The notes: a model not told the origin generated them from the letters alone. Counted from the stretch's first letter, positions 384-27,657 are shown. The stretch is DNA of 32,000 nt from Candidatus Lokiarchaeum ossiferum (GCA_025839675.1 CP104013.1:1350001-1382000); one strand, 5' to 3'. Translations and numbers: made by a program.

Positions 384-507
384 GTTTCTTTTGCCAAAGT
401 AATCCATTTATCTTCTTTTTTTTTAGATATCTTGGAAAAGATTTCAATTCCCTTATCAAGTGAGGTTATTGACTCTGAATTTAGTTTTAAATTGTAATTA
501 CAAAGAC

Positions 508-846
508 CTACTTTAATAGAGTTTGGTAAATATACCATCCGTTTGGATCGACCTTAATAGCATACTTTAATTCTTTCAAGGCAAGTTTATATTGGCCAGT
601 TTCATACAAAATCTCACCATAAATATCTCGATAATCGCCCCTTTGTGGTTTGAGAGAGACTATTTCCTTTGCCAGACTTAAAACAGATGATAAATCCCCA
701 TTGCTAATATAGCAGTAAATTAGGTGGTTTTTTAATGTCGAATTATCGTCAAAGTGGGGTTTAGTCTTTGATGATCTACCAAGCTTACATGAAAATCTAT
801 ACCCTGTAGGACAAGAAAAGAAGGAAAAAAAAGATCTTAGGTTCAA
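508..846 (-). CDS. Short TPR-repeat protein; start uncertain and the 3' end may be frameshifted
   Basis: ...LIYCYISNGDLSSVLSLAKEIVSLKPQRGDYRDIYGEILYETGQYKLALKELKYAIKVDPNGW shows about two TPR-like helix pairs (A-x-x-x-Y/L-x-x-A-I-x-x-D-P). It is co-directional with, and downstream of, the FN3 gene. Confidence 0.45.
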   Translation of the reverse strand: MNLRSFFSFFSCPTGYRFSCKLGRSSKTKPHFDDNSTLKNHLIYCYISNGDLSSVLSLAKEIVSLKPQRGDYRDIYGEILYETGQYKLALKELKYAIKVDPNGWYIYQTLLK

Positions 847-892
847 TCAATCAGCTATCGTGAGACTATACGGCGAATAGATGAGATTTAAA

Positions 893-3787
893 TCATTTTC
901 GCTTTTTCTTATAAATTATAGAAGCACCTACCACACCTATTAGAACAAGCAGCAGATCAATTGGTCCAAGGGGGGAGGAATCTTCTTCAATATGAAATGT
1001 ATCACTAATTCCAATGCTTTCCCCATATATATTTACTGCAACAATTTTGTAGTAATAATTCATATGAGGGACCAAATCACCGTCGTCGGTGAATTGCGTA
1101 ATCGTACTCGTTCCAATAATTTCATATGGGATATTTTCATCACTCGAATATTCAGCCGTATTATTTGCACGGTAAATATTATAATAAAGAATAGGAGCAC
1201 TTCCATTTGATAATGGTGCATTCCATTCAAGGATGTTATAAGGTACTCCATCAGCAAAATTTGATTCGATCCGCAATCCAGTCGGTGCTGAAGGAGTTTC
1301 CTTCAGTCGAGCACTCACTTGGTTGGATTTCTCACTTTCTCCAATAATATTGATTGCTTTCACTACATAAAAATAAATATATCCTTGAGTAACATTTTCA
1401 TCGATATATGAAGTAGTATTAGTATTTACAATTGCAATATAATCGGTTCCATTAGTGGTAGAACGATATACGGTATAGTTAAAGATCGGTTCCCCTCCAT
1501 TTGTTGAAGAAATATTCCAATAAAGTTGCACTTCAACAATATTTGTTATTGCTTGCAAATTTAATGGTTTAGAAGGCACTGTTGCGAATAAAGCCGGAAT
1601 TCCACTCACTTCATTTGATTGAGGGCCAACCGCATAGTTATTGACTGCAACCACATAATAATAATAGGTGATATTGTTTGTTACCGTCGTATCATTATAC
1701 TCTTCTGAAAAACTCGTTCCGATTTGAGTATAGGATGTGGTATCATTCGTGGAACGATAAATTTCATAGTGAATAATAGGACCAGTTCCAGTGAGCGCGG
1801 GAGCGTCCCATTGTAATTCTATTGTACAATTACTTGGTGTAGTTTGTAAATTTTGAGGCGCAGAAGGAGCGATTATGACGAAGATTGCACTCACTTCATT
1901 TGATTGAGGGCTAGCCGCATAATTATTGACTGCAACCACATAATAATAATAGGTGATATTGTTTGTTACCGTCGTATCATTATACTCTTCTGAAAAACTC
2001 GTTCCGATTTGAGTATAGGCTGTGGTATTATTCGTGGAACGATATATCTCATAATATTTAATTATACTTGCTCCACTGAGCGTTGGAACTTCCCATTGTA
2101 AACCTACCGTGCAATTACTTGGTGTGGCCTGCAAATTTTGAGGCGAAGAAGGACCATAACTTGCATAGGGAGTTGCATTGACTATTGAAGAACCTAAACT
2201 TTCATCATAATCATTGTATGTAGTAACATAATAATAGTAAGTAGTTCCATTCTCTACACTGGTATCATTATAATAAAATTCGTCATAATAAGAAAGACCG
2301 AGAAAATATTCCGGAAATCCTGTGGTGCTCCTTGTAGATCTATAGATATAAAAATATGTTAAGCCCCATGAAGAAGAACCATTACTTAATGGAGCATCCC
2401 ATTCAAGAAAAACAAACCCTAATCCTGCTTTGGCTGTAATATTTTCTGGAGGTGTTGCTTTGTTTAACACCGATGTATTGTTACTCTCTGCAATAGAGGA
2501 CGTGTTACTTTCTCCAATGGAGTTTACGGCAGTAATATAATAATAATAAGTTGTTCCATTTTCAATTTCAATATCAAAATACCGGAGCATAGTATTGTAT
2601 CCAATATACGAGAAACTCTCATTATCTTCAGAACGATAAATTCGATATTCATTGATGAGGGCTCCTCCATTTGAAACTGGTTTGTCCCAGGTTAGTTGGA
2701 TATAATCATCAGCATCCAAATAATCTTTTCCCGTTGATATCGATGGATTTAATGGGGCAGTAGGTACTGTTGACTGATTGACAGGAATTGCACTTGCGTT
2801 GTTTGAAAATTCACTTTCACCTGCAATACTAGCTGCAGAAACCTTGTAATAATATTCGTGTCCATTCGTTAGATTGACATCAATAGCATTCATACTTGAT
2901 GTATTGAATTGGTAACTAAATGAACCTCCAACATTAGTTGTACGGTAGATATTATACCACAATATTGTACTTCCATTATTCAAAATTGGTGACTCCCAAT
3001 GTAGTGCTACTGATTCATTCCCAGGGGTTGCTTGGAGGTTTGAAGGAAGTGAAGGAACTCCAATAGGGATCGCAGATACTATATTAGATTGATTACTCTC
3101 CTGGAATGTAAATATGGAAACATAATAAAAATATTCTGTCCCACACACCACATCATTATCTTGATAAGACAACTCCCAATTATATGCAGAATCAATAAAT
3201 GTAAAGATAGAATCATTCGTTAACGATCGGTAGATATTGTAGGAAGATTGAGGAAAAGCCGAAGCACCAGATGGAGCAGTCCAATTTAACTGGACATAGC
3301 CAATTTCCCCAGAAGCAGTGAGATTTTGTGGAGGTAGCATTGCAAGTGAGACAGCAGAAACAATATTGGAGGATTCAGACTCTTGCTCTTCCCAAGAAGG
3401 ATCGATTATCACAATACCTGCTGTAACAAAATAAAAGTATTCTATCCCAGGATCGCCAGTAAAATCTTGATAAGACAACTCCATACTAGATAGAGAAGTA
3501 ATAAATGTAAAGCTAGAATCATTCGTTATCGATCGGTAGATATTATATGACTCGACATTAATATTTACCCCAAACTCAGAAGCAGTCCAATTTAACTGGA
3601 CATAGCCAATTTCTCCAGAAGCAGTGAGATTTTGAGGTGGAGTATAAAAATTATCATCGATCGGCTCAGCTGAATCGAATATTTGTTGTTTTTCGAGTTT
3701 ATTCGTTGTTTCGGACTCAGAAAATGAGATTATTAGTCCAAAAAGATTTACCAAAATGATAAAGTAGATGACTTGTTTTGTTTTCAA
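893..3787 (-). CDS. Large secreted or cell-surface glycoprotein with nine fibronectin type III-like domains, an N-terminal signal peptide and a C-terminal TM anchor with a basic tail
   Basis: 964-aa ORF. The N-terminus MKTKQVIYFIILVNLFGLIISFS is signal-like. There are nine repeats of the pattern P-x-N-L-x-A...L-x-W-x-x-P...Y-x-(I/V)-Y-R-(S/T)...Y-Y-Y-x-V-x-A-x-N-x-x-G-E-S. I count more than 30 N-x-S/T sequons by eye. The C-terminus is EEDSSPLGPIDLLLVLIGVVGASIIYKKKRK (short motif, hydrophobic helix, Lys/Arg cluster). Confidence 0.9.
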   Translation of the reverse strand: MKTKQVIYFIILVNLFGLIISFSESETTNKLEKQQIFDSAEPIDDNFYTPPQNLTASGEIGYVQLNWTASEFGVNINVESYNIYRSITNDSSFTFITSLSSMELSYQDFTGDPGIEYFYFVTAGIVIIDPSWEEQESESSNIVSAVSLAMLPPQNLTASGEIGYVQLNWTAPSGASAFPQSSYNIYRSLTNDSIFTFIDSAYNWELSYQDNDVVCGTEYFYYVSIFTFQESNQSNIVSAIPIGVPSLPSNLQATPGNESVALHWESPILNNGSTILWYNIYRTTNVGGSFSYQFNTSSMNAIDVNLTNGHEYYYKVSAASIAGESEFSNNASAIPVNQSTVPTAPLNPSISTGKDYLDADDYIQLTWDKPVSNGGALINEYRIYRSEDNESFSYIGYNTMLRYFDIEIENGTTYYYYITAVNSIGESNTSSIAESNNTSVLNKATPPENITAKAGLGFVFLEWDAPLSNGSSSWGLTYFYIYRSTRSTTGFPEYFLGLSYYDEFYYNDTSVENGTTYYYYVTTYNDYDESLGSSIVNATPYASYGPSSPQNLQATPSNCTVGLQWEVPTLSGASIIKYYEIYRSTNNTTAYTQIGTSFSEEYNDTTVTNNITYYYYVVAVNNYAASPQSNEVSAIFVIIAPSAPQNLQTTPSNCTIELQWDAPALTGTGPIIHYEIYRSTNDTTSYTQIGTSFSEEYNDTTVTNNITYYYYVVAVNNYAVGPQSNEVSGIPALFATVPSKPLNLQAITNIVEVQLYWNISSTNGGEPIFNYTVYRSTTNGTDYIAIVNTNTTSYIDENVTQGYIYFYVVKAINIIGESEKSNQVSARLKETPSAPTGLRIESNFADGVPYNILEWNAPLSNGSAPILYYNIYRANNTAEYSSDENIPYEIIGTSTITQFTDDGDLVPHMNYYYKIVAVNIYGESIGISDTFHIEEDSSPLGPIDLLLVLIGVVGASIIYKKKRK
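1603..2172. repeat. Intragenic tandem duplication, 2 x 285 bp (one FN3 module each), nearly identical at nucleotide level over the module core
   Basis: The string cactcacttcatttgattgaggg... starts at 1603 and again at 1888 (offset 285 = 95 codons). About 140 bp following each start are almost base-for-base identical. The protein copies are PSSPQNLQATPSNCTVGLQWE... and PSAPQNLQTTPSNCTIELQWD... Confidence 0.9.
3194..3641. repeat. Second intragenic duplication, period 306 bp, covering the first two FN3 modules
   Basis: aataaatgtaaag(a/c)tagaatcattcgtta(a/t)cgatcggtagatatt occurs at about 3194 and about 3500. cagtccaatttaactggacatagccaatttc(c/t)ccagaagcagtgagattttg occurs at 3277 and 3583 (offset 306). 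Protein: PPQNLTASGEIGYVQLNWTA...YNIYRS(I/L)TNDS appears twice. Confidence 0.85.
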
Positions 3788-4409
3788 CTATTTGACCTCC
3801 ATAAATATTTAGTTATTTTTGCCCAATTTCCACTTTCTGGAAAAAAATGTGAACCTAAAGGCTCATAGGGCTCAAATGTAAAGAAATATCTCATTTATGT
3901 TCTAAATCCCTTTCTCCGTTAAAGAAACGACTATAAGATTCTAAGACATAATTAGACTTGTGTTCTTTGTGAAATCCCATTTGATTGTTATAAATAATAA
4001 TAGAACTCCACGTAATAACCTTATTATTTAAATACTAAAAAAAGGGGAGAAAGTAAACAAGTTTGCTTCATGATATCATCGTAACGATCAATGTTTTTTA
4101 CAGGGAATTTGAATGACCCTAAAGTTTTAGAAGATTTGTTCTTTGAAGTGTGGTATTATTTAGATTTATAATTTTTCGACAATGAAAATGTAAATAAATG
4201 CGAGAATACAACCTTTTTAATCCATTTGTTCATCTAATGCCTTTTTAAGACCCAAGAGCAAACACCTTGATAAAAAACTAGAAAACAGTAAGCAACCTTT
4301 ATATCTGCCTATTCTTGCTTTCTTGCAAACAATTTTGTATATGATTATTGAAAGGAAGAACCTTTTTAAGTGGATAAGATTATCATATTCACTAATAAAA
4401 TTCTGATTT

Positions 4410-5180
4410 ATGAAAAAATTCCTTAGAAGGGATGTAAATATGGCCTCAAGAGAAGAAAATGATCTCCCAAAACAAAATATAATAGATCCCAACATTCCTG
4501 TTGCCTATTCATTGATTTCTTTACCCCTAATTTATCTTATTGGATATTTTCTCTTTAATTTTCCTCCTTTTAATATATTTTTCGTACTTTTACAAAATCT
4601 TACCACGTATTCTGTTGCAATATTATCAAAGATATCTTTAATGCCCGAAGTACAAATAATTCATTCTTTTAATTCAATATTGACTGTTTCAGCTTCTGAC
4701 CCTGCTTTATTCTATGAAAATATTAACTGGCTGTTTTCAATCAACAAATGGTGCACTGCAATGAATATTGGGGTGTATATCATCGCGCTGGTATTAGTTA
4801 CACCAATTTTTCATAAAAGACAAGAATCTCATCCCTTAATTCAATCATTAGTCGGAAAAAAGGAATTATTTCTCAAATTAAAGGCTATATCTTTGATGTT
4901 ACTTCTTCTTTTTATCTTAAACTCTATTAGAGTCTGGTTATTTCTTTATTTATTCGTGATGTATGATATTCCCAAAGAAATCTCCCATGATCTGATTTAT
5001 AAACCTGTTATCTTTTCACTGGGAATTTTTTTTGTAGCAATGTTTCAGAAACTCGGAATTGATATAGCAGAGTTGATTTTATCTTGGTTTAAATCGATGC
5101 TCTTTATTGTTCAATCAGGAAGAGATTTTATCTTGCAGAAGTTTCAAAACAAAAAACCCTCTCGAGATGAAAAAAACTGA
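4410..5180 (+). CDS. Polytopic membrane protein, putative exosortase/archaeosortase-family transpeptidase
   Basis: 256 aa with about 6-7 predicted TM helices. Three motifs occur in the order expected for the exosortase/archaeosortase domain as I recall it (A-C-S-G-I-R ... A-N-G-L-R ... D-H-L-I-Y-G-W-x-F-F). They are INKW-C115-TAMNIG, LFIL-N171-SI-R174-VWLF and EIS-H193-DLIYKPVIF. The gene is divergent from the FN3 protein, which carries a tripartite C-terminal signal. An alternative start is Met11 (4440). Confidence 0.55.
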   Translation: MKKFLRRDVNMASREENDLPKQNIIDPNIPVAYSLISLPLIYLIGYFLFNFPPFNIFFVLLQNLTTYSVAILSKISLMPEVQIIHSFNSILTVSASDPALFYENINWLFSINKWCTAMNIGVYIIALVLVTPIFHKRQESHPLIQSLVGKKELFLKLKAISLMLLLLFILNSIRVWLFLYLFVMYDIPKEISHDLIYKPVIFSLGIFFVAMFQKLGIDIAELILSWFKSMLFIVQSGRDFILQKFQNKKPSRDEKN

Positions 5181-5188
5181 CTAAATAC

Positions 5189-5584
5189 TTGAAGCTATTG
5201 GGTGTAAGCATAGTAATTTGGATCACGCCATATTTTTGGGGACTGATTGTCCCATTAGATGTAGAGTTTCATCCGTTGATCTTACTTTATGAAATAAATG
5301 ATGGTTATTATGTCAGTCTAATATTGCTATTAGCATTATATCTAATCTTGACCCATGATCTCCAAGAAATCATGTTGAAAGAGTGTTTATTGGAAGGATT
5401 GGTGATAATGTGTCTTCAAATTACTTTTGACATCATATTTATGATTATTTTTCCTCCTCTCCCTTCACAGAAAATTCTTCTGTTTGTGGGAATCTCTCAT
5501 CTTTTGATCCCTTTTTGGCTCCTAATGTTTTATTGGATAATACAGAAAAAAAACGAACTATTCACAAAAAAAGATCATACTTGA
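5189..5584 (+). CDS. Small integral membrane protein of unknown function
   Basis: 131 aa with about 4 hydrophobic helices. The TTG start lies 9 nt after the stop of the upstream archaeosortase-like gene on the same strand, and there is no in-frame ATG for about 60 codons. The coding call rests on ORF length and TM-like composition only. Confidence 0.45.
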   Translation: MKLLGVSIVIWITPYFWGLIVPLDVEFHPLILLYEINDGYYVSLILLLALYLILTHDLQEIMLKECLLEGLVIMCLQITFDIIFMIIFPPLPSQKILLFVGISHLLIPFWLLMFYWIIQKKNELFTKKDHT

Positions 5585-5678
5585 ATGGGTCTCGACAACC
5601 TCTTTGAATTGAAAATCTGCCCATTCTTGGACGAATCCTAATAGTTGAAGAATGATGGGATAGCATCCGAAAAAACTC

Positions 5679-7412
5679 TTAGAAAAGATTTAATCCCAGA
5701 TCACTTAGGCTAAAAATACTTAAACCGATAGTAAAAATAATCTGGCAAATAAGAATAAAGGAAGAAATTTGGATCGCTCTCAGATTTATCCTATTTTTTC
5801 CTAACTTGCCTTTTTCTTTTTTTGCTAAGGAATAACAAATCATAGGACATAATAAAGGATAAAGTAAAGATAAGGGCAATATTACTTTAAGAACCAATCT
5901 TGAATCGTGGGGAAATATTTCTTTAGTTGTTTTCTCTTCTAACAAATCGATCCATTCGATCTGATTTAAAAGAAAATCAGCATCCATCATACCTAATGTA
6001 TACCATGGACGTTTTTCTTCTTTATCGTTATCCAAAATTAAAAGAGATTTCGCTTTTGGCATTTTTGGAGCTAATATGCTTGCAATCGTTCCAATTGCCC
6101 ATTCTAAACTTCCAAAATATCCAGTTTTTTCCCATACCAATAGAATTAGATAAATGAAGACAAATGACACCGCGATAATAAACATGGTGGTCCCAAAATC
6201 ATAGAGATCGGAATCCCCAACTAAAAATTCATTACCTAATGACAAAGAAATTAATCCAATAGGAATAAGGGCGAAAAATCGTTGGAAAGTGTAGATTGAT
6301 AATGCAGGTATCCCAAAACGACGGATAGGTCTGGAATACTTAGCAAAAGTGTTTGAAGCACCTCGAAATTCTAGGAGTCTAAAGAGCATCGTTATGGCAA
6401 TGATTTGCCCAGCAAGAACCATCAAGAACCACGGAAGCCAGTGAAGGTACAATCCATTTGATAAAGCCGTTATATCATCATAATCATTATCTAATGGGAT
6501 TAAAACATCAAAAGGGCCCACATCTTGAGTTACCATGAAGAAAATAGCAATCAAAATTCCTATAACACCGATGAATCCAGCAATTATGGCAGATTTAAAA
6601 AGATCTGAGGTTTTTTTCTGCTCTTTTTTTTCCGCTTTGAAAATCACTATCGCAATAATATTTCCCACAAAAGCATAGCTTAAATATGGAAAAATGGGTG
6701 TGTTTTGACCAGCAACAATAAGAAAAATAAAGTATTCGAAGTATTTAGTAATAGGCCAGCCCATCAGAGGCTGAGAAATATATTTATTTCCAGTAGGATC
6801 TAAATTGCTGGGATAGTCCGCCGTAGGATATCCAGGTATAAGTGATCTAATGGAATTCCAGATTGGTTGTGTTGCAATCAAAATAATTATACTAAGTCCA
6901 ATGAAAATCAGAATATTGCGATTAAATTTTAAATGCCCATTATTTCTACATAATACCGGGTATATAATTCCATTAATAATCATGCACACACTCAGACACA
7001 TCAATGGACTCATCACATAAGAATGCCAAATGATCCGAGTAAAATCAACAGGTCCCCAAATCAAAGTTCCCAAAAAACCATACTTTTGCAAGGTCCCTTC
7101 CACTATCAGCGCAATCATAAGTAATAAGAACCCAAATAACACTTGTCTTTTCATCACACTTTTCCAATCATTTCCTTTTTCTAAATTTCGCTGCATGGAG
7201 AAAATATTTCCCGTAGCACTGATCATTACGAACATACTTCCCCAACATCCAAAATAAACAATGAAGAGTAAAATTATAACTAAAATGATTGGATAATCAT
7301 TTAATTGTGATTCTAAGCTTTCTTCATCAAGTAAATCAGTAAATAGATGAATAAAACAAACACACATTATGCCAAAGCCGCGTAAAAAGTCAATTGTTAT
7401 ATATCGTCTCAT
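5679..7412 (-). CDS. DUF1624 / heparan-alpha-glucosaminide N-acetyltransferase (HGSNAT)-like membrane acyltransferase, long form
   Basis: 577 aa and highly polytopic. The N-terminus MRRYITIDFLRGFGIMCVCFIHLF matches the R-x-x-x-(I/L)-D-x-x-R-G-x-x-x-x-x-(M/V)-x-x-x-H signature of the DUF1624/acyltransferase-3-like families. Confidence 0.7.
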   Translation of the reverse strand: MRRYITIDFLRGFGIMCVCFIHLFTDLLDEESLESQLNDYPIILVIILLFIVYFGCWGSMFVMISATGNIFSMQRNLEKGNDWKSVMKRQVLFGFLLLMIALIVEGTLQKYGFLGTLIWGPVDFTRIIWHSYVMSPLMCLSVCMIINGIIYPVLCRNNGHLKFNRNILIFIGLSIIILIATQPIWNSIRSLIPGYPTADYPSNLDPTGNKYISQPLMGWPITKYFEYFIFLIVAGQNTPIFPYLSYAFVGNIIAIVIFKAEKKEQKKTSDLFKSAIIAGFIGVIGILIAIFFMVTQDVGPFDVLIPLDNDYDDITALSNGLYLHWLPWFLMVLAGQIIAITMLFRLLEFRGASNTFAKYSRPIRRFGIPALSIYTFQRFFALIPIGLISLSLGNEFLVGDSDLYDFGTTMFIIAVSFVFIYLILLVWEKTGYFGSLEWAIGTIASILAPKMPKAKSLLILDNDKEEKRPWYTLGMMDADFLLNQIEWIDLLEEKTTKEIFPHDSRLVLKVILPLSLLYPLLCPMICYSLAKKEKGKLGKNRINLRAIQISSFILICQIIFTIGLSIFSLSDLGLNLF

Positions 7413-7421
7413 TTTAGTTCA

Positions 7422-7474
7422 CAATATTTCCATTTGATATTCCCATTTGATAGTCTTCAATATTTCCATTTGAT
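7422..7474. repeat. Three direct copies of a (T/C)CCATTTGAT-containing element in the core promoter region of the 5679-7412 gene
   Basis: caatatttccatttgat is at 7422-7438, attcccatttgat at 7439-7451, and caatatttccatttgat at 7458-7474. The two outer 17-mers are identical. The elements lie 10-62 nt upstream of the minus-strand ATG at 7412. Confidence 0.6.
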
Positions 7475-8046
7475 TAAATTTAGTCAATCGATTACATGGT
7501 CTTTCTCTTTTCTTATTATAAAAAATTACTTATTTTTACAATCTAATCGAGAAACACGAAGTAATTTTAGTAACTTCTAATTACGAGTGATTTTTTCTAG
7601 AAAAATCTCAAAATGGAAGAGATTTTTATCAACCAGCCACAAGTATGGAAATTATGACTCAGGAAAAAATTTACATAATAAAAACTCATATATCTACAGC
7701 ACTTCATATCTTTATTCGAGGATTGGAAGGAGATGCATTACGTTAATATACTTTTGAGTTAGAAAGAAAGGTTTTATGAAAGAACTTAAGGTGAAAGAAT
7801 TTTAATTCGCGTTTCAATTGAGAAATTGAAAATTAGATACCAATTTAATTAAATTTCTTGTTAATTCATTTGAATCGGAAAACTTGAATTTTAACACTTA
7901 AGAAGAAAGCGCTAAATCAGCTGAAAGTAGTGCGAAGTGATTTTTCAGATCAGAACTCATTTTCATAAGGAGTAAGTATATTTAACGGAAATTAAAAAAT
8001 AGTAAAGATTTAAAATTTCAAAATCCTAAGAATTATTAGAGCACAT

Positions 8047-9501
8047 ATGAGTAGTAAATTTGGAATTTCCACTTATCATAATACCCAAGCGATTTATCAA
8101 AACCTTGATAAATTGCTTCAACAGCCCATTCTTGGAATAAAAGAAGACGCAATGACTAATTATCTAAATTATTTTGAGACTAAATGTCAAAAATCGAAAC
8201 ATATCATCACTGAAGCCAAGCAATATATTCCGGGAGGCGTACAGCATAATTTAGCTTTCAATTATCCATTTCCGATTGTGGTCACCAAGGCAGAAGGAGC
8301 TCACCTATATGATGTTGACGGAAACAAGTATATCGACTTTTTGCAGGGGGGAGGGCCAACAATTCTTGGAAGTAACTATCCTGCTATCCGCGATAAAGCG
8401 ATTGAAGTTCTTTCAACAGCAGGTCCAGTTACCGGATTATTTCATGAATATGAACTTAAAATTGCAAAACAAATCCATTCCTATATGCCCTCTATAGAAA
8501 TGTTTCGGATGCTGGGTAGTGGGACTGAATCAGTTATGACAGCACTTCGAATTGCTCGATTAGCCACTAAAAAGAAAAAAATAATTAAAATGGGAGGTGC
8601 TTACCACGGATGGAGTGATCAAATGGTATATGGATTACACATCCCCGGCACTCGCAGATTTGAAGCCCACGGGATCCCTGCTGCCTGCAGTCGACATACG
8701 CAAGAAGTATATCCAAATAATATAGGCGCATTAGAACGTAAATTACAATGGAATAAATTACGAGGAGGAACAGCTGCGGTTATTTTAGAACCCTTAGGTC
8801 CTGAAAGTGGTACTCGTCCGGTCGATCGAGACTATAATCAGAAAGTAAGAGATTTATGTGACAAATATGGCGCATTACTCATATTTGATGAAGTTGTTAC
8901 TGCATTTCGGGTTGGTTTGGGAGGTGCTCAAGGGTATTTTGGAATCAAACCAGATTTGACTATTTTTGGCAAAATAGTCGCTGGAGGCTATCCTGCAGCC
9001 GGTGGAATTGGAGGGAGAAAAGATTTAATTTCCTATCTCGCAGCAGGTTTGGAAAGCGGAAAGAAACGTGCCTATTGTGGTGGAACTATGGCCGCCAATC
9101 CATTAAGCGCCGCCATGGGATATTACACATTAAAAGAAATCGAGCGAACCGATGCATGTGTTAAAGCGGGGCAAGCAGGAGATCAAATCACCCAAGGACT
9201 TCAAAAATTAATTGAGGATTATGAACTCCCTTATGTTGCATATAATCAAGGCTCTATTAATCACTTAGAAACTGTAGGTGCAATGTTCATTAAACTATTT
9301 GGCTTGCAGATATTCAAAGCCTTAAAAGAAATAAAAGCCCGAAAATTCGCCATGGAACAGTATGGAGCAGCTTATATGGCCGAAGGGATGGTCACTCTTG
9401 CGGGAAGTCGTCTTTATACAAGTATGGCAGATACTCCAGATGTTATCACAGATGCATTACAACGATTTGAACGGGTGTTTCAAAATATTCAAAAGAAGTG
9501 A
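8047..9501 (+). CDS. Class III PLP-dependent aminotransferase/aminomutase, glutamate-1-semialdehyde 2,1-aminomutase-like paralog with an N-terminal extension
   Basis: KSKHIITEAKQYIPGGVQHN...AEGAHLYDVDGNKYIDF...GSGTESVMTALRIARLAT...LIFDEVVTAFRVGLGGAQGYFGIKPDLTIFGKIVAGGYPAAG. This has the GSA-aminomutase-type layout, including the D-E-V-x-T-x-F-R and (L/F)-G-K-(I)-x-(G)-G-G PLP-lysine motifs. About 45 extra residues precede the HemL-like start. Confidence 0.85.
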   Translation: MSSKFGISTYHNTQAIYQNLDKLLQQPILGIKEDAMTNYLNYFETKCQKSKHIITEAKQYIPGGVQHNLAFNYPFPIVVTKAEGAHLYDVDGNKYIDFLQGGGPTILGSNYPAIRDKAIEVLSTAGPVTGLFHEYELKIAKQIHSYMPSIEMFRMLGSGTESVMTALRIARLATKKKKIIKMGGAYHGWSDQMVYGLHIPGTRRFEAHGIPAACSRHTQEVYPNNIGALERKLQWNKLRGGTAAVILEPLGPESGTRPVDRDYNQKVRDLCDKYGALLIFDEVVTAFRVGLGGAQGYFGIKPDLTIFGKIVAGGYPAAGGIGGRKDLISYLAAGLESGKKRAYCGGTMAANPLSAAMGYYTLKEIERTDACVKAGQAGDQITQGLQKLIEDYELPYVAYNQGSINHLETVGAMFIKLFGLQIFKALKEIKARKFAMEQYGAAYMAEGMVTLAGSRLYTSMADTPDVITDALQRFERVFQNIQKK

Positions 9502-9503
9502 AA

Positions 9504-10163
9504 ATGATGAACGAAACAGAATTGGAAGTTAAAAAAATTGTTTGCGAAGCAGGAAAACGATTATCTACCAGCGGATTAGTTGCGGGAACATGGGGAAATA
9601 TCAGTTGTCGAGTAGATGATGATACGATGGTGATAACACCCAGTGGTGTAAATTATGATACTGCTTCAGAAGCAGATATGGTAGTAGTGAATTTACATAA
9701 CATGGAATATCAAGGTCAACATAAACCATCAACGGAAGTGGGACTACATGCCAAGATTTATTTGACCCGAAAGGAAGTGAATGCAATAATTCACACCCAT
9801 TCAATGAACGCATCAACAGTCGCAGCAGCGCGTCGTGAAGTTCCCCCAATATTGGATGATATGGCACAAATTGTAGGTCCATCCATTCGAGTTGCAGAAT
9901 ATGCCTTACCTGGGACAAAGAAAATCACCAATAATACGGTCAAAGCCCTCCGAGGTCGAAATGCGGTTTTAATGGCAAATCATGGAGCCTTAGCCGTGGG
10001 TCGAGATATTGAAGAAGCCTTTACCACATGTTTAGTTTTAGAGAAAGCATGTAAAGCATTTATCGAAGCAGAATTTATGGGAGGAGCTAAGTCCATTAAC
10101 AAATTCGAAGCTCACATAATGCATCAGTACTATTTACGTAAGTATTCAAAGAAAAAGCGATAG
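9504..10163 (+). CDS. Class II aldolase/adducin-family protein (FucA / AraD / MtnB-like)
   Basis: GLVAGTWGNISCR...MVITPSG...KPSTEVGLHAKIY...AIIHTHSMNAS...VLMANHGALAVGRDIEEAF. The catalytic Glu and the three metal-binding His positions of class II aldolases are present. A GTG at 9498 overlaps the upstream TGA, or ATG 9504 lies 2 nt after it. Either way this indicates an operon with the aminotransferase. Confidence 0.85.
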   Translation: MMNETELEVKKIVCEAGKRLSTSGLVAGTWGNISCRVDDDTMVITPSGVNYDTASEADMVVVNLHNMEYQGQHKPSTEVGLHAKIYLTRKEVNAIIHTHSMNASTVAAARREVPPILDDMAQIVGPSIRVAEYALPGTKKITNNTVKALRGRNAVLMANHGALAVGRDIEEAFTTCLVLEKACKAFIEAEFMGGAKSINKFEAHIMHQYYLRKYSKKKR

Positions 10164-10358
10164 AATTTGAAGAAAAAAGGAAAAAATCTGATCCACTTTC
10201 TATTCATTCCTTGGGAGGAAACTTCCTTTAAGTTTTTTAAACCTTTAATTTTTATATTTTACCTTGAAATCCATGATATTCTAAAGTAGGATCCCAGTAA
10301 AAATCAACAATTTTAACAAAATAAATATTAGAAGAAAGGAAAAAAAGGAAAAATTTCC

Positions 10359-10367
10359 AAAAAAAAA
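10359..10367 (-). terminator. T9 tract (A9 on the plus strand) about 20 nt downstream of the OsmC-like gene stop
   Basis: ccaaaaaaaaactc on the plus strand. This is an oligo-T on the transcribed strand just after the stop at 10387. Confidence 0.4.
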
Positions 10368-10386
10368 CTCAACAATCCAAAAAGTT

Positions 10387-10902
10387 TTATTCACTCTTTT
10401 TAATTTGGACTTTAGGAGTGATTGGAGAAGCACCATTAATATTGGTTATGATTGGGCAATGAGTTAACACTTTTTCCATCATTGCTTCGACTTTCTCTTT
10501 TGGAGCGGGGGATTTAATTTTTATTATAGGTTCCAATTTGTCATAACCAGCGAGTAAATTGTCATCTAAACCGAAAACAGCACCTAAATTAATATGACCT
10601 CGGCTGAATACCTTCAATTCATCGATTTGGATATCCATAATTTTAGACCAGAATTTGGTGACCGCAACAATACAAGCACCAATAGATCCAAGAATGACTA
10701 ATAATGGACTAGGACCTTCATTTAACCCATCTAAACCTGGAGGAGCATCAATCGTAAACACAAACGGTTTGGCACCCATTTTGACTTCGGTCTTCATGCC
10801 ATCAGGTAGCATGGTGCATTCAACATTAAAATTTTTTTCTCCTTTGGAGATATCTGCTTTAATCGCTTCGTATGTTTCTTTAAAACTTGGCATATTGATC
10901 AT
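10387..10902 (-). CDS. OsmC/Ohr-family peroxiredoxin-like protein
   Basis: GLDGLNEGPSPLLVILGSIGACIVAVTKF...KVEAMMEKVLTHCPIITNI. The two conserved Cys contexts (G-x-C-x and H-C-P-(V/I)) and the P-x-x-L-L motif of the OsmC fold are present. Confidence 0.75.
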   Translation of the reverse strand: MINMPSFKETYEAIKADISKGEKNFNVECTMLPDGMKTEVKMGAKPFVFTIDAPPGLDGLNEGPSPLLVILGSIGACIVAVTKFWSKIMDIQIDELKVFSRGHINLGAVFGLDDNLLAGYDKLEPIIKIKSPAPKEKVEAMMEKVLTHCPIITNINGASPITPKVQIKKSE

Positions 10903-11153
10903 CTATCTAACACATCAATATTCATCGAATTAATGAAAAAGAATGCGTCACGAATATGTATTCATATAGATTAATAAATTTTGGTTTTTTACTTTTGATA
11001 TCACTTTTTCAACATTTTTGCTGAAAAAAATAATCTTTTTGAAATAAAATTGACATAGTTTTAACAATTTTGATCAATCTATGGAACACTCAAAAATAAA
11101 TTGAGCAAAAAAAAAGGAGATAGAAAAAATGCCCATCGATTTAGAGCAAAAGT

Positions 11154-11843
11154 TTATTCTTGTTTAACTAATGTAGTACTGAGCAATAGATCAATTATTT
11201 TTTTCTTCTTGCGAATAAAAGGGACCGTTTGCAACACAATAATCATTTCAGAACCAATTTTTAAAGTCACAGTACCAGCACCCATAGAAATCAACTCGAA
11301 TATATCCGTGAATTCAATATTTAATTGCAAATTAGTGGTTGGAAATCGTTCAGATTTTCCTTGAGCCAGACCTTTGATATAGATCTCATTTTTTTCAATC
11401 TTGACAAAATGTACTTGAGCTTGGATAATTGCAGCAATTATTGTAAAGCCTAAAATTCCAAGAACCCATGCATAGAATTTAGAATCTAGAGTAAAATCAA
11501 ATAATGTACGAATACTTGCAATGAAAGCAAATAAATCAATCGTACCGTTATGATCCAACAAGACTAAACCCATTCCAATTAAAATAACTACAAGAAAAAG
11601 CACAAAGAACTTTATACTCGAGAAATCAAAGCCAACAATTACAAGATTTATGAAGAATATAAAAATCCAAATAATAGCAAGTTGCGAAATTGGCTCTCGC
11701 CCCAATTTTTCTCCCCCATATTGCACAACCAAGGCAATGAGAGTATAAATAAAAAGGGGATAAAATAAAATAATCTTAGAATAATTCTTTAACACTACGC
11801 GATTTTTGGGTTTTGTAGAATTTGCTTTAGTTTTCGAAGTCAT
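11154..11843 (-). CDS. Membrane protein with about 4-5 TM helices and a C-terminal beta-rich domain, possibly bPH/YdbT-like
   Basis: 229 aa. A hydrophobic N-terminal two-thirds is followed by HFVKIEKNEIYIKGLAQGKSERFPTTNLQLNIEFTDIFELISMGAGTVTLKIGSEMIIVLQTVPFIRKKKKI. This resembles bacterial PH (bPH_2) domains, but the domain assignment is tentative. Confidence 0.55.
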   Translation of the reverse strand: MTSKTKANSTKPKNRVVLKNYSKIILFYPLFIYTLIALVVQYGGEKLGREPISQLAIIWIFIFFINLVIVGFDFSSIKFFVLFLVVILIGMGLVLLDHNGTIDLFAFIASIRTLFDFTLDSKFYAWVLGILGFTIIAAIIQAQVHFVKIEKNEIYIKGLAQGKSERFPTTNLQLNIEFTDIFELISMGAGTVTLKIGSEMIIVLQTVPFIRKKKKIIDLLLSTTLVKQE

Positions 11844-11908
11844 ATAGATAGGTATGATTTTTCCACCTAAAGCCCTTTATATTCCAAGGGAGATAAAAAA
11901 AAGAAGCA

Positions 11909-13318
11909 TTAACGATAGAGATTCATTTTAATTGTTTCTTGAGTTATTCTTGCCTCTTCAGCAGCAAAAGCCATAAAATGGGATTCCATCGCGGTTTCAA
12001 TATCAGCATAGCCTGCCTTTTCCGGAGATTTTACACCAAGGAGAACAGATGTAAATGCATCCATCATTCCAAAATCACCCCCACCATGCCCCGCCATGTT
12101 CATTCCGGTTTTATAAACGGTTATTGGAATGCTATCACTAAAATTAGTCACTACCACTTCTTCGTGCTCTGCACGAAAAACTCCACGAATACTCCCTTTG
12201 GTTCCAAAAATTCGAATTTCCCTACCTTCTATATCCGATAATCCATGCACAGTTAAAGTGCCAGTTACTCCAGAGGGAAAATTGAAGGTAGAAACTTGAT
12301 GATCCACCACATCATTTCCTGTTTTATAGATACATTTTCCATAAGGTCCTTCTCGGAGAGCTTTCATCCGACCTTCGACGGTTAAATCAGTTGTGATGAT
12401 GCTAGATGGCCAATCCTTCCAGTCTAAGAATGATTTATATTTAGGGGCTAACTTAAATAGATGACCTGCCAGTTTACGGTGCTTTAATACAATTTTGGCT
12501 AAAAACTTTAAAAATTTATTAGAACTTGTAAAAATCTCTTGAATAATAGGTTTTCCACGAAGATATAAGGAAGGAGCATACCATGGGCAAGTTGACGCAT
12601 GACTACACCCATCAGTACATCGATCTGCTGCATTTTCAGGAGCATTTTCAGGACGATAATGGGAGAGGTTCCCCGTAGATTGCACATTGAGCGGTTGTTT
12701 TCCAATAAGCCAAAACATAAGATCTAAATCATGACAGCTTTTTGCTAAAATGAGAGGGGAAGAGGTCGCCTTATTTTTCCAATTGCCTCGCACAAAGGAA
12801 TGGCCAAAATGCCAAAAAGAGACATTTTCAGAATGATCATAATGAATTATACGCCCGATTCTACCAGAATCAACCACATTCTTAATAGATTTCCAAAACT
12901 CCGTATAGCGAAGTACATGTCCCACTTGAATATATTGATCCTTTTCTGTTCTTAATTTAACCAACTCTTGACATTCTGCCAAGTGAGGAGAAATGGGTTT
13001 TTCTAATAATATATGGTAACCCAATTCAATTGCCATTTTAGTAGGGAAAAAATGCTTATCATCTTGAGTACATATGAAAACAACGTCTGCGATCTTGCCC
13101 ACTGTTGGATTTAGGATATCTTCCCAGTTTGTATATGCATGAGAGTCGGGAATGTTATGAAGTGATTGATATCGTTTACGTTTTTCAGGTATAGGTTCAG
13201 CAACAGCAATCATTTTTAATCTATGAGGTTTTTCAAGGGCGTACAAACCATAGGCATCCACTCCCCGATTTCCAGCACCAATCATTATTCCGGTTACAGG
13301 AGTTCTTGTACTATTCAT
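11909..13318 (-). CDS. Gfo/Idh/MocA-family NAD(P)-dependent oxidoreductase, long form with a Cys-rich insert
   Basis: The N-terminal Rossmann motif is IMIGAGNRGVDAY...MIAVAEP...ADVVFICTQDDKHFFPTKMAIELGYHILLEKPIS (E-K-P motif). The insert is RCTDGCSHASTCPWY (C-x3-C-x5-C). Confidence 0.85.
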   Translation of the reverse strand: MNSTRTPVTGIMIGAGNRGVDAYGLYALEKPHRLKMIAVAEPIPEKRKRYQSLHNIPDSHAYTNWEDILNPTVGKIADVVFICTQDDKHFFPTKMAIELGYHILLEKPISPHLAECQELVKLRTEKDQYIQVGHVLRYTEFWKSIKNVVDSGRIGRIIHYDHSENVSFWHFGHSFVRGNWKNKATSSPLILAKSCHDLDLMFWLIGKQPLNVQSTGNLSHYRPENAPENAADRCTDGCSHASTCPWYAPSLYLRGKPIIQEIFTSSNKFLKFLAKIVLKHRKLAGHLFKLAPKYKSFLDWKDWPSSIITTDLTVEGRMKALREGPYGKCIYKTGNDVVDHQVSTFNFPSGVTGTLTVHGLSDIEGREIRIFGTKGSIRGVFRAEHEEVVVTNFSDSIPITVYKTGMNMAGHGGGDFGMMDAFTSVLLGVKSPEKAGYADIETAMESHFMAFAAEEARITQETIKMNLYR

Positions 13319-26325: not shown

Positions 26326-27657
26326 ATGACTAAACGCATTTTATCCATCGATATTCTTCGTGGGTTTGGGATTATTTTTGTAGTTCTACTTCATGCTTTA
26401 GCCTTCCGAATATTTGGGCAAGATCGCAGTCAAATTCAACAAATTTGGGAAACAACTCCCCCAATCTTAATCATCTTAGCATTGCCATTTGTAATTATTA
26501 CATTATGGGGATCAGTATTCACATTTCTTGGTGGTGTCTCAGTCACTTATTCAATTATTCAAACTGAAAATCGAAATAGTGAAGACGTGCCCAACAAGAT
26601 TCAACATCATTTAGTAAGGAGTCTAATTATTTTGGTGCTTCAATATGTTTTCCTTGCCTTGTTTTCAAACCAAATTTCGGGAAATACATCCCAAATAACG
26701 CACTCACTAATCACGGGATTTTTTGAAACATTGAGTTTCGATACACCCAGTTTCTTGCACTATTTTACCGCAGGAACTTTAGAGGCCATTGCTGCAGGAA
26801 ATATTGTGGTTTCTTTAATTTTATATTTACAATGGAAACGCAATAAGCTCACTAATTTCTCTCACACTTCCAGACGATTTATCATGATTGGGCTAATAAT
26901 TATAATATTCACATTTATAGCTTTTGAAATTATAGGAGATCAAGCAGCCAACATATCATTACTTCAGCAAAATGAAAAATGGGGTCAACTATTGCTCTTT
27001 ATCAAAATTTTTGCTGGAAGATATAGTTTATTCCCCACGCTATCCTATGCAATGTTTGGAGCGGTATTTGGGTATGCTATCGCTAGTAATCAATCCTATA
27101 ACGAAATCAAGAAGTATGGTTTTATTATCGGGGGTATATTTATAGGAATTTTCATGATCTCTCTTCTTCGCGGATTTAATTACATTAAAGACCTCGCAGG
27201 TGAAAATTTACCGCTAAATGTGTATTTGTTTAATCTAGGAGGACAAATGGTCACTTTTACCGCTTTACTCAAAATTGATTATAGTTCACCAAAGAAACGA
27301 GAAATTCATAAAAAACGAGCAAGAATTTTCTTACTTTTCGGAAATTTAACACTCACAATATATTTCTTTGAAGGTATAAATTCAATTCTTTTATATCGAA
27401 TATTTGCCAGCATCTTTTCAATCAATTTTGTGTCGAATGCATGGCTTGTCTTTTTATATGAAAATATGATATTTTTGATTTGGGTAATAATATTGACTTT
27501 ATGGGGTAAATTAAAATTCAATTTCACTATTGAATATTGGATTGGCCTAATCGAGAATAAAGTTAGAAAACTCTTCAATCAAAGATATGTACAAGAAAAC
27601 GAACCCGAATTAGGTGTTTTTAGTGAAATTAAGAACCCAATAATTGTATTAAAATAG
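26326..27657 (+). CDS. DUF1624 / HGSNAT-like membrane acyltransferase, short paralog
   Basis: MTKRILSIDILRGFGIIFVVLLHAL has the same N-terminal signature as the 5679-7412 gene. The protein is 443 aa and polytopic. An AGGGAG purine tract lies about 10 nt before the ATG. Confidence 0.7.
   Translation: MTKRILSIDILRGFGIIFVVLLHALAFRIFGQDRSQIQQIWETTPPILIILALPFVIITLWGSVFTFLGGVSVTYSIIQTENRNSEDVPNKIQHHLVRSLIILVLQYVFLALFSNQISGNTSQITHSLITGFFETLSFDTPSFLHYFTAGTLEAIAAGNIVVSLILYLQWKRNKLTNFSHTSRRFIMIGLIIIIFTFIAFEIIGDQAANISLLQQNEKWGQLLLFIKIFAGRYSLFPTLSYAMFGAVFGYAIASNQSYNEIKKYGFIIGGIFIGIFMISLLRGFNYIKDLAGENLPLNVYLFNLGGQMVTFTALLKIDYSSPKKREIHKKRARIFLLFGNLTLTIYFFEGINSILLYRIFASIFSINFVSNAWLVFLYENMIFLIWVIILTLWGKLKFNFTIEYWIGLIENKVRKLFNQRYVQENEPELGVFSEIKNPIIVLK

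Follow-up and report, generated by a model that had tools for sequence, protein, structure and literature searches.

A 32,000-nucleotide stretch of the genome of Candidatus Lokiarchaeum ossiferum (GCA_025839675.1, CP104013.1:1350001-1382000; hereafter the window) carries, near its start, two divergently oriented genes that we have characterized computationally. One (NEF87_001097) codes for a 256-amino-acid (aa) polytopic membrane protein with sortase-like motifs, and the other (NEF87_001096), on the opposite strand, codes for a 964-aa surface glycoprotein candidate built from FN3 modules (hereafter the FN3 protein) that ends in a hydrophobic helix and a basic cluster. Downstream of the sortase-like gene is a hydrophobic open reading frame (ORF) of 131 aa, whose TTG start codon lies 9 nt past the sortase-like stop, followed by a convergent 577-aa ORF, NEF87_001098 (Table 1). 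The coordinates, strands, 9-nt spacing, and divergent gap of about 620 bp (622 bp by our count) reported in an earlier note on this DNA are all as claimed. Exact-sequence matching shows that NEF87_001096, NEF87_001097, and NEF87_001098 are each annotated as 'hypothetical protein' at NCBI, where the start of NEF87_001097 is placed at Met11 (position 4440), giving a protein of 246 aa. The reading that we develop below, to which we give a little under an even chance, is that NEF87_001097 split off from the Asgard heimdallarchaeosortases, evolved rapidly within its own lineage, and has a role in sorting the adjacent FN3 protein.

The 256-aa protein is related to heimdallarchaeosortases

The 256-aa protein matches the NCBIfam model NF045528 'heimdallarchaeosortase' with a score of 53.1 bits (E=4.1e-14), and the alignment runs end to end, with profile positions 7-197 of 199 placed onto aa 39-230. 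A phmmer search of 1.84 billion representative proteins returned just four real relatives, all four of which exceed the heimdallarchaeosortase cut-off; the closest of them (P0002) aligns over the whole length at 31% identity (E=2e-16), and no relative with a higher identity was found among these representatives. A profile search gave 110 proteins, the named ones being mostly heimdallarchaeosortases from Hodarchaeales, Thor-, Odin-, and 'Promethearchaeota' metagenome-assembled genomes (MAGs). No further L. ossiferum protein of this family is present among the 110 matches, and NEF87_001097 seems to be the sole L. ossiferum member of the heimdallarchaeosortase branch. When 102 aligned family members were scored, all 102 matched NF045528, 92 matched the exosortase/archaeosortase model TIGR04178 (exo_archaeo; E<=1e-3), and 53 matched the ArtA model, to which the 256-aa protein itself gave no direct profile match. 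Because the 256-aa protein matches NF045528, and 92 of the 102 family members match TIGR04178, the link to the superfamily is solid though transitive, and by sequence the protein is almost certainly an exosortase/archaeosortase homolog. On the same kind of profile evidence it is an extreme outlier of its family: ten true NF045528 members scored singly, from both of the classes described below, reach 171-257 bits, and a local hidden Markov model (HMM) built from the other 101 members gives it 69 bits, versus 217.5 bits for the lowest-scoring member.

The three motifs noted earlier are present in the claimed order, KWCTAMN at aa 113-119, LNSIRV at aa 170-175, and SHDLIYKPVIF at aa 192-202, and the conservation earlier ascribed to their Cys, Arg, and His residues holds in the 102-sequence family alignment. 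Cys115 and Thr116 are invariant, and Asn171 (100%), Arg174 (99%), His193 (98%), Asp194 (98%), and Lys198 (at least 98%) are conserved in relatives; the window protein keeps all of these. Cys, Arg, and His, the suspected triad of the superfamily (bioRxiv 10.1101/2023.06.07.544157), are thus all present in the family order and in membrane-embedded contexts, and in Haloferax ArtA Cys173 and Arg214 are experimentally essential (PMC9263693). At the highly conserved columns as a whole, the window protein agrees at only 25 of 66 and differs at 41. The ORF is intact, and read in frame its codons score like those of expressed genes in the window. Since the suspected triad is selectively retained amid heavy change, we favor, with somewhat better than even confidence, the view that NEF87_001097 would still work as a cysteine endopeptidase or transpeptidase within the membrane, its specificity altered, and would not be a relic.

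The predicted structure is compatible with such an enzyme. An AlphaFold2 (AF2) model computed on the family alignment is that of a multi-helix membrane protein (predicted local distance difference test [pLDDT] 82; predicted template modeling score [pTM] 0.73), hydropathy agrees, and positive charges are grouped at the N-terminus, in the loop at residues 131-152, and at the C-terminus. From the AF2 helices and this charge distribution we infer an N-in, four-helix topology, in which Cys115, Arg174, and His193 would lie toward the outer face, at the height where the motif of a substrate meets its helix.

The FN3 protein and its C-terminal tail

The FN3 protein has the nine FN3 modules, the signal peptide, and the more than 30 N-glycosylation sequons with which it had been credited. 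It matches Pfam fn3 with E=3e-35, with seven stretches passing, and nine FN3-type modules are recognizable by a repeating P-x-N-L...W / Y-Y-Y pattern. There are 39 N-x-S/T sequons, or one per 25 residues, compared with 17.1 +/- 3.6 in 1000 composition-preserving shuffles, and they are therefore above chance. A signal-like helix occupies aa 5-23, and a C-terminal helix at aa 940-958 is followed by KKKRK. The gene also contains internal DNA repeats, offset by about one FN3 module, between positions 1599-1868 and 1884-2153 (modules 6 and 7, 88% identical) and between 3119-3328 and 3425-3634 (modules 1 and 2, 80% identical); these repeats therefore point to recent tandem duplication of modules.

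The C-terminal tail (aa 932-964) has the architecture of short motif, hydrophobic helix, and basic cluster that was described for it. Using Haft's attributes of tripartite sorting signals as criteria (bioRxiv 10.1101/2023.06.07.544157), we found that the FN3 tail displays attributes 1, 4, 5, and 6, namely a C-terminal position, a hydrophobic helix, 2-5 clustered basic residues, and an N-terminal signal peptide on the same protein, with the motif abutting the helix without a spacer. Attributes 2, 3, 7, and 8 of the same scheme are the presence of several such proteins per genome, at least three near-invariant signature residues, occurrence on otherwise unrelated proteins, and the existence of tail-less homologs (bioRxiv 10.1101/2023.06.07.544157).

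The tail had been taken to be undescribed, a view that is not established, as NCBIfam already has two models for Asgard tails, Loki-CTERM (NF033507, cut-off 19.9 bits) and Heimdall-CTERM (NF045529, cut-off 24 bits), on both of which the tail is borderline. With Loki-CTERM it gives 14.8 bits when the full-length protein is scored, too low for the cut-off, and 20.1-20.9 bits in isolation, just above it; with Heimdall-CTERM the values are 14.6 bits and 19.1-20.1 bits, both under the cut-off. Annotation pipelines do not call Loki-CTERM in the FN3 protein because the whole-protein score is under the cut-off. The aligned model positions (5-27 of Loki-CTERM and 7-26 of Heimdall-CTERM) cover the helix and basic cluster alone, and removal of the basic cluster abolishes the matches. 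None of 14 composition-preserving shuffles of the helix reaches the native score (best 17.7 and 12.7 bits), and among six generic Asgard C-terminal anchors none matches Heimdall-CTERM and one matches Loki-CTERM, at 16.7 bits. Because the shuffles and generic anchors score lower, the tail helix, on these profile comparisons, resembles known Asgard sorting tails more than chance would give, and S-P-L-G-P is not what matches. To derive the true Heimdall-CTERM motif from examples, we also searched about 1.06 Mb of Asgard DNA around 70 members of the heimdallarchaeosortase family and found 13 ORFs with both a signal and a tail (signal+tail ORFs); none of the seven of these that were tested matches Heimdall-CTERM, and no genuine example was thus obtained.

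Possible pairing of the two genes and a proposed mechanism

The low frequency of signal+tail ORFs in the 1.06 Mb of Asgard DNA, and the finding that the FN3 protein is the sole one in 41 kb at this locus, allow the chance of such an ORF lying adjacent to the sortase-like gene to be placed at roughly 2.5-5%, a figure that is suggestive, not decisive. Dedicated one-to-one sorting systems encoded by neighboring genes are a recognized category (bioRxiv 10.1101/2023.06.07.544157), and there is precedent within the family itself, in that four divergent paralogs (at loci L061, L067, L070, and L072; see below) also lie beside signal+tail proteins. Adjacency and tail architecture together make it plausible that the FN3 protein is the substrate of the sortase-like protein, an assignment that we hold at moderately less than an even chance.

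If the two proteins do act together, the signal peptide at its N-terminus would direct the FN3 protein out through Sec, and many of the 39 sequons would receive N-glycans, after which the C-terminal helix would hold it transiently in the membrane, with KKKRK in the cytoplasm. The sortase-like enzyme, whose Cys115, Arg174, and His193 would sit close to where its helices end in the outer leaflet, would then cut at or near the junction between S-P-L-G-P and I-D. By analogy with Haloferax ArtA, the new C-terminus would be passed to a membrane lipid, such that the glycoprotein would become lipid-anchored rather than helix-anchored. A bolder version, which we regard as rather unlikely, is that in L. 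ossiferum a heimdallarchaeosortase has been converted into an enzyme reserved for one target, with S-P-L-G-P and the specific helix as a new signal, and that this enzyme covalently lipid-anchors the giant, hyper-glycosylated nine-FN3 protein as one of the 'complex surface proteins' seen by cryo-tomography.

Classes and neighborhoods of the heimdallarchaeosortase family

The 70 family loci found by a genome scan lie in named MAGs with the titles Heimdall-, Hod-, Thor-, Hermod-, and Kari-archaeota, Promethearchaeota/Promethearchaeati, or simply 'archaeon'; none of the 70 is titled Lokiarchaeum. They include a class K (n=30), with K-A-C-T-G and mostly His178, and a class R (n=39), with R-A-C-T-G and without His178. 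A gene for Sec61-beta lies within 2 kb in 22 of the 30 class-K loci, often directly downstream (examples in Table 1), compared with 0 of the 39 class-R loci, and is absent from the window; class-K neighbors also often include an RNA methyltransferase (Methyltrn_RNA_3) and ATP synthase subunit D. We found no description in the literature of this link between a class-K sorting enzyme and the translocon component Sec61-beta, nor any mention of Loki-CTERM, Heimdall-CTERM, or heimdallarchaeosortase in the literature searched; the three exist as database models.

An exceptional arrangement is seen among the 12 class-R loci with Met178, four of which (L061, L067, L070, and L072) have signal+tail proteins adjacent or one gene off, those at L070 and L072 being divergently oriented as in the window. 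The Asgard heimdallarchaeosortase family is thus not uniform: one class is linked to Sec61-beta, there is a second class, and some paralogs lie next to putative substrates. None of the tested tails of class-R-adjacent proteins matches a curated CTERM model. The adjacent tails at L061 (two of three), L067, and L072, together with a more distant tail at L064, all carry [I/L]-P-[I/V/A/L] close to where the helix ends on its cytoplasmic side (..LLILPIIVMHRRKTKK, ..AIPLIRKKVK, ..LVIPALIIRSKRK, ..FIPVVILWRRLK, ..LLPILRKKYRSQ), a feature that the L070 tail and the third L061 tail are without. This type of tail may be an undescribed Heimdallarchaeia sorting signal.

We note a further arrangement in the Heimdallarchaeota LC_3 contig MDVS01000002.1 (L077, 10001-12708 and 17758-19904), where two family paralogs lie 7 kb apart. 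One (P0036) is without both conserved His residues and the other (P0034) is canonical, and each lies beside or near a gene for a PEMT/ICMT-family membrane methyltransferase, a pairing reminiscent of the protease plus carboxyl-methyltransferase logic of eukaryotic CAAX processing.

Evidence against a dedicated pair, and alternative explanations

Several observations weigh against reading NEF87_001097 as a heimdallarchaeosortase offshoot that serves the FN3 protein. Its NF045528 score is well below the curated cut-off of 130 bits for this equivalog model, its match to TIGR04178 is in the right region (aa 151-212) at 11.9 bits (E=0.22), under the cut-off of 23 bits, and a Pfam scan gives no match, including to PF09721 (Exosortase_EpsH). 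Because TIGR04178 and PF09721 stay under threshold, membership rests on transitive profile evidence; the earlier proposal that this is an exosortase/archaeosortase homolog stands through the link to NF045528 and the kept Cys, Arg, and His, and not through a direct match. The PDB contains no relative of the 256-aa protein by fold or by sequence, and the family has no solved structure. Many near-invariant family residues are changed (including His178 to Phe, Gln119 to Asn, Gly201 to Ile, and Gly204 to Leu), and from these losses the protein could be a degenerate enzyme or one with a new function. His193 is itself not universal, as the nearest relatives, P0002 and P0036, carry Glu at both His positions.

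The tail and the gene arrangement add to these points. Replacing S-P-L-G-P with alanines, or deleting it, costs just 0-3 bits on both CTERM models, and nothing in these scores marks it as a recognition motif. No second copy of the tail turned up, which does not make it unique, as the protein search with the final FN3 module and the tail (13 candidates) missed even the query itself and a metagenome scan with the C-terminal third was empty; and a helix with a basic cluster is also the architecture of a plain type-I membrane anchor. As a rule, the genes of family members stand alone, resemble housekeeping genes, and do not neighbor their substrates. No orthologous enzyme/substrate gene pair was found elsewhere among the 1.84 billion representatives, and regular co-occurrence is thus not shown. 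Lastly, the two L. ossiferum assemblies are 100% identical over 893-5678, so that the locus provides no evolutionary signal and no ratio of nonsynonymous to synonymous substitution rates (dN/dS).

One alternative is that the enzyme is active and the pairing coincidental, with NEF87_001097 being a general sorting enzyme for tail-bearing proteins encoded elsewhere (for example, true Loki-CTERM proteins), and the FN3 protein one of many substrates or none. The isolation of canonical heimdallarchaeosortases amid housekeeping genes, with Sec61-beta within 2 kb in 22 of 30 class-K loci, implies one-to-many systems; NEF87_001097 is also the only family member seen for L. ossiferum, and the FN3 tail scores on the generic Loki-CTERM model about as well as on anything else. 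However, the low probability of chance adjacency runs counter to coincidence, the extreme divergence from the family suggests that specificity has shifted and not that a general role was conserved, and there is no ortholog in other Lokiarchaeia among 15 billion proteins, which would be odd for a general Loki-CTERM enzyme. We judge this explanation to have perhaps a modest chance of being right, clearly on the unlikely side.

A second explanation, which we consider unlikely, takes the FN3 protein for a plain type-I membrane protein that its C-terminal helix anchors for good, and the sortase-like protein for a decaying or re-purposed relic without any remaining role in protein processing. This would fit with the changes at 41 of 66 conserved columns, including His178, Gly201, and Gly204, with a singleton lineage that has no close relatives and is sub-threshold on every curated model, with the failure of S-P-L-G-P to match any model, and with the loss of both His residues in P0002 and P0036. 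Against it stand the intact ORF, in which exactly Cys115, Thr116, Asn171, Arg174, His193, Asp194, and Lys198 are kept amid heavy change, the confident AF2 model, and codon statistics like those of expressed genes in the window.

The remaining alternative, that the 131-aa membrane ORF serves the sortase as an accessory subunit and the module has three components, is improbable: the ORF is on the same strand, starts just past the sortase stop, is hydrophobic with three or four helices, and has an in-frame codon score that is positive and the best of three frames, unlike intergenic controls, but it has no homologs and no Pfam or NCBIfam match, is not annotated at NCBI, has no related ORF beside the 70 family members (small downstream ORFs at L002 and L003 are unrelated), scores only +0.03 to +0.14 in frame versus 0.13-0.32 for confident genes, and has an AF2 pLDDT of 57 with its first 40 residues disordered, such that the accessory role earlier suggested for it is not sustained. 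The ORF occupies a 498-bp gap that is unannotated at NCBI, and it may encode a small membrane protein restricted to this lineage or may have arisen by chance in T-rich DNA. That it is a frameshifted C-terminal part of the sortase was ruled out, as canonical family members end where the window protein ends.

Surroundings of the locus

The features discussed here are listed in Table 1. The divergent intergenic region between the FN3 and sortase-like genes, which presumably houses the promoters of both, contains no ORF with a coding signal, and an Rfam scan of it gives no family; an RNA element was considered there and dropped for the latter reason.

Table 1. Positions of genes and features in the window and at family loci elsewhere
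Sequence	Feature	Position	Strand	Remarks
Window	FN3 surface glycoprotein candidate, 964 aa, NEF87_001096	893-3787	-	TTG start; ORF listing
Window	C-terminal tripartite tail, HIEEDS-SPLGP-IDLLLVLIGVVGASIIY-KKKRK, aa 932-964 of FN3 protein	896-994	-	
Window	Divergent intergenic region, 622 bp, between FN3 and sortase-like genes	3788-4409	.	
Window	Sortase-like protein, 256 aa, NEF87_001097	4410-5180	+	ORF listing and NF045528 match
Window	Hydrophobic ORF, 131 aa, not annotated at NCBI	5189-5584	+	TTG start
Window	Convergent ORF, 577 aa, NEF87_001098	5679-7412	-	ORF listing
L028	Sec61-beta	10963-11124		
L027	Sec61-beta	10973-11134		
L002	Sec61-beta	7367-7552		
L004	Sec61-beta	10967-11113		
L061	Signal+tail protein(s) near class-R paralog	10192-12632		
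L067	Signal+tail protein(s) near class-R paralog	5738-6880		
L070	Signal+tail protein(s) near class-R paralog	494-1318		
L072	Signal+tail protein(s) near class-R paralog	7514-8509		
L064	Signal+tail protein(s) near class-R paralog	3290-4675		

The convergent ORF NEF87_001098 is one of two HGSNAT_cat / acyltransferase-3-like polytopic proteins in the window, the other being at 26326-27657 (+); both begin with an R-I-x-S/T-I-D-x-L-R-G-F-G-I motif. Enzymes of the HGSNAT_cat / acyltransferase-3 type acetylate glycans across membranes, and it is conceivable that these acyltransferase-like proteins modify surface glycans.

Comparison of the window with the second L. ossiferum assembly (L076, CP163304.1) shows that the two are a mosaic. 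Over window positions 5679-13000, differences start inside the acyltransferase gene and rise to 4-5% by 10 kb, beyond which identity is just 89-92%. CP163304.1 also has a 1.48-kb insertion directly downstream of the FN3 gene (window positions 822-828), containing two unknown ORFs of 238 and 209 aa, and an insertion of an IS110-family transposase near window position 10345.

Significance of the locus

Very few Asgard archaea are in culture, and L. ossiferum is among them. In cryo-tomography its single membrane bears complex, unidentified surface proteins, and an ordered S-layer is absent; a role for these proteins in the contacts between cells that matter for eukaryogenesis has been proposed (PMC9834061). 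A relative, Promethearchaeum syntrophicum, has been shown to glycosylate N-x-S/T sites, and no S-layer protein was detected there (PMC11284389). The nine-FN3 protein beside an archaeosortase relative is a reasonable candidate for one such complex surface protein together with its anchoring route, and the locus, with an unannotated sorting enzyme and a candidate substrate, is an experimentally tractable candidate for the study of surface-protein attachment. It also illustrates that an archaeosortase-superfamily protein whose catalytic positions are intact can diverge far enough to escape curated cut-offs.

Comparison with known systems

The closest family to the sortase-like protein is that of the heimdallarchaeosortases (NF045528), to which it is similar in length (about 250 aa) and helix layout and with which it shares K-x-C-T, N-x-x-R, and H-D-x-x-x-K in the same order and at the same positions. 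It differs from them in scoring 53 bits versus the cut-off of 130, in agreeing at 25 of 66 conserved columns, in having no Sec61-beta synteny, and in its Lokiarchaeon host. Heimdall-CTERM (NF045529), the partner signal of NF045528, resembles the FN3 tail in its helix and basic cluster (19-20 bits in isolation), but the tail stays under the cut-off of 24 bits and leaves the first six positions of the model unmatched. Loki-CTERM (NF033507) was described from Lokiarchaeota, and the isolated tail reaches its cut-off, whereas the whole protein gives 14.8 bits and leaves the first four positions, which presumably hold the signature, unaligned; we found no curated sortase model paired with Loki-CTERM.

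The ArtA/PGF-CTERM system of Haloferax volcanii is the sole experimentally characterized archaeosortase system, and the lipid anchoring that we propose is modeled on it (PMC9263693, PMC7157517). ArtA belongs to the same superfamily; it is a cysteine enzyme that spans the membrane several times and whose Cys and Arg are essential. Its substrate, the counterpart of the FN3 candidate, is a surface protein with abundant N-glycans that ends in a tripartite signal, the motif of which abuts the helix (PMC9263693, PMC7157517). The differences are that the ArtA motif is P-G-F rather than S-P-L-G-P, that ArtA has many substrates, which are not encoded beside it, and that its third essential residue is Arg253, not His.

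In gene arrangement the locus can be compared with single-target systems such as VPEID-CTERM/exosortase E and JDVT-CTERM/MrtJ. Exosortase E was reportedly described as a single-target system by Haft et al. in 2012. Such systems are defined by regular co-occurrence in many genomes, whereas the pair described here is seen in a single lineage; as in those systems, however, one enzyme gene lies beside one target gene. Neighboring genes are Haft's diagnostic feature of dedicated systems (bioRxiv 10.1101/2023.06.07.544157).

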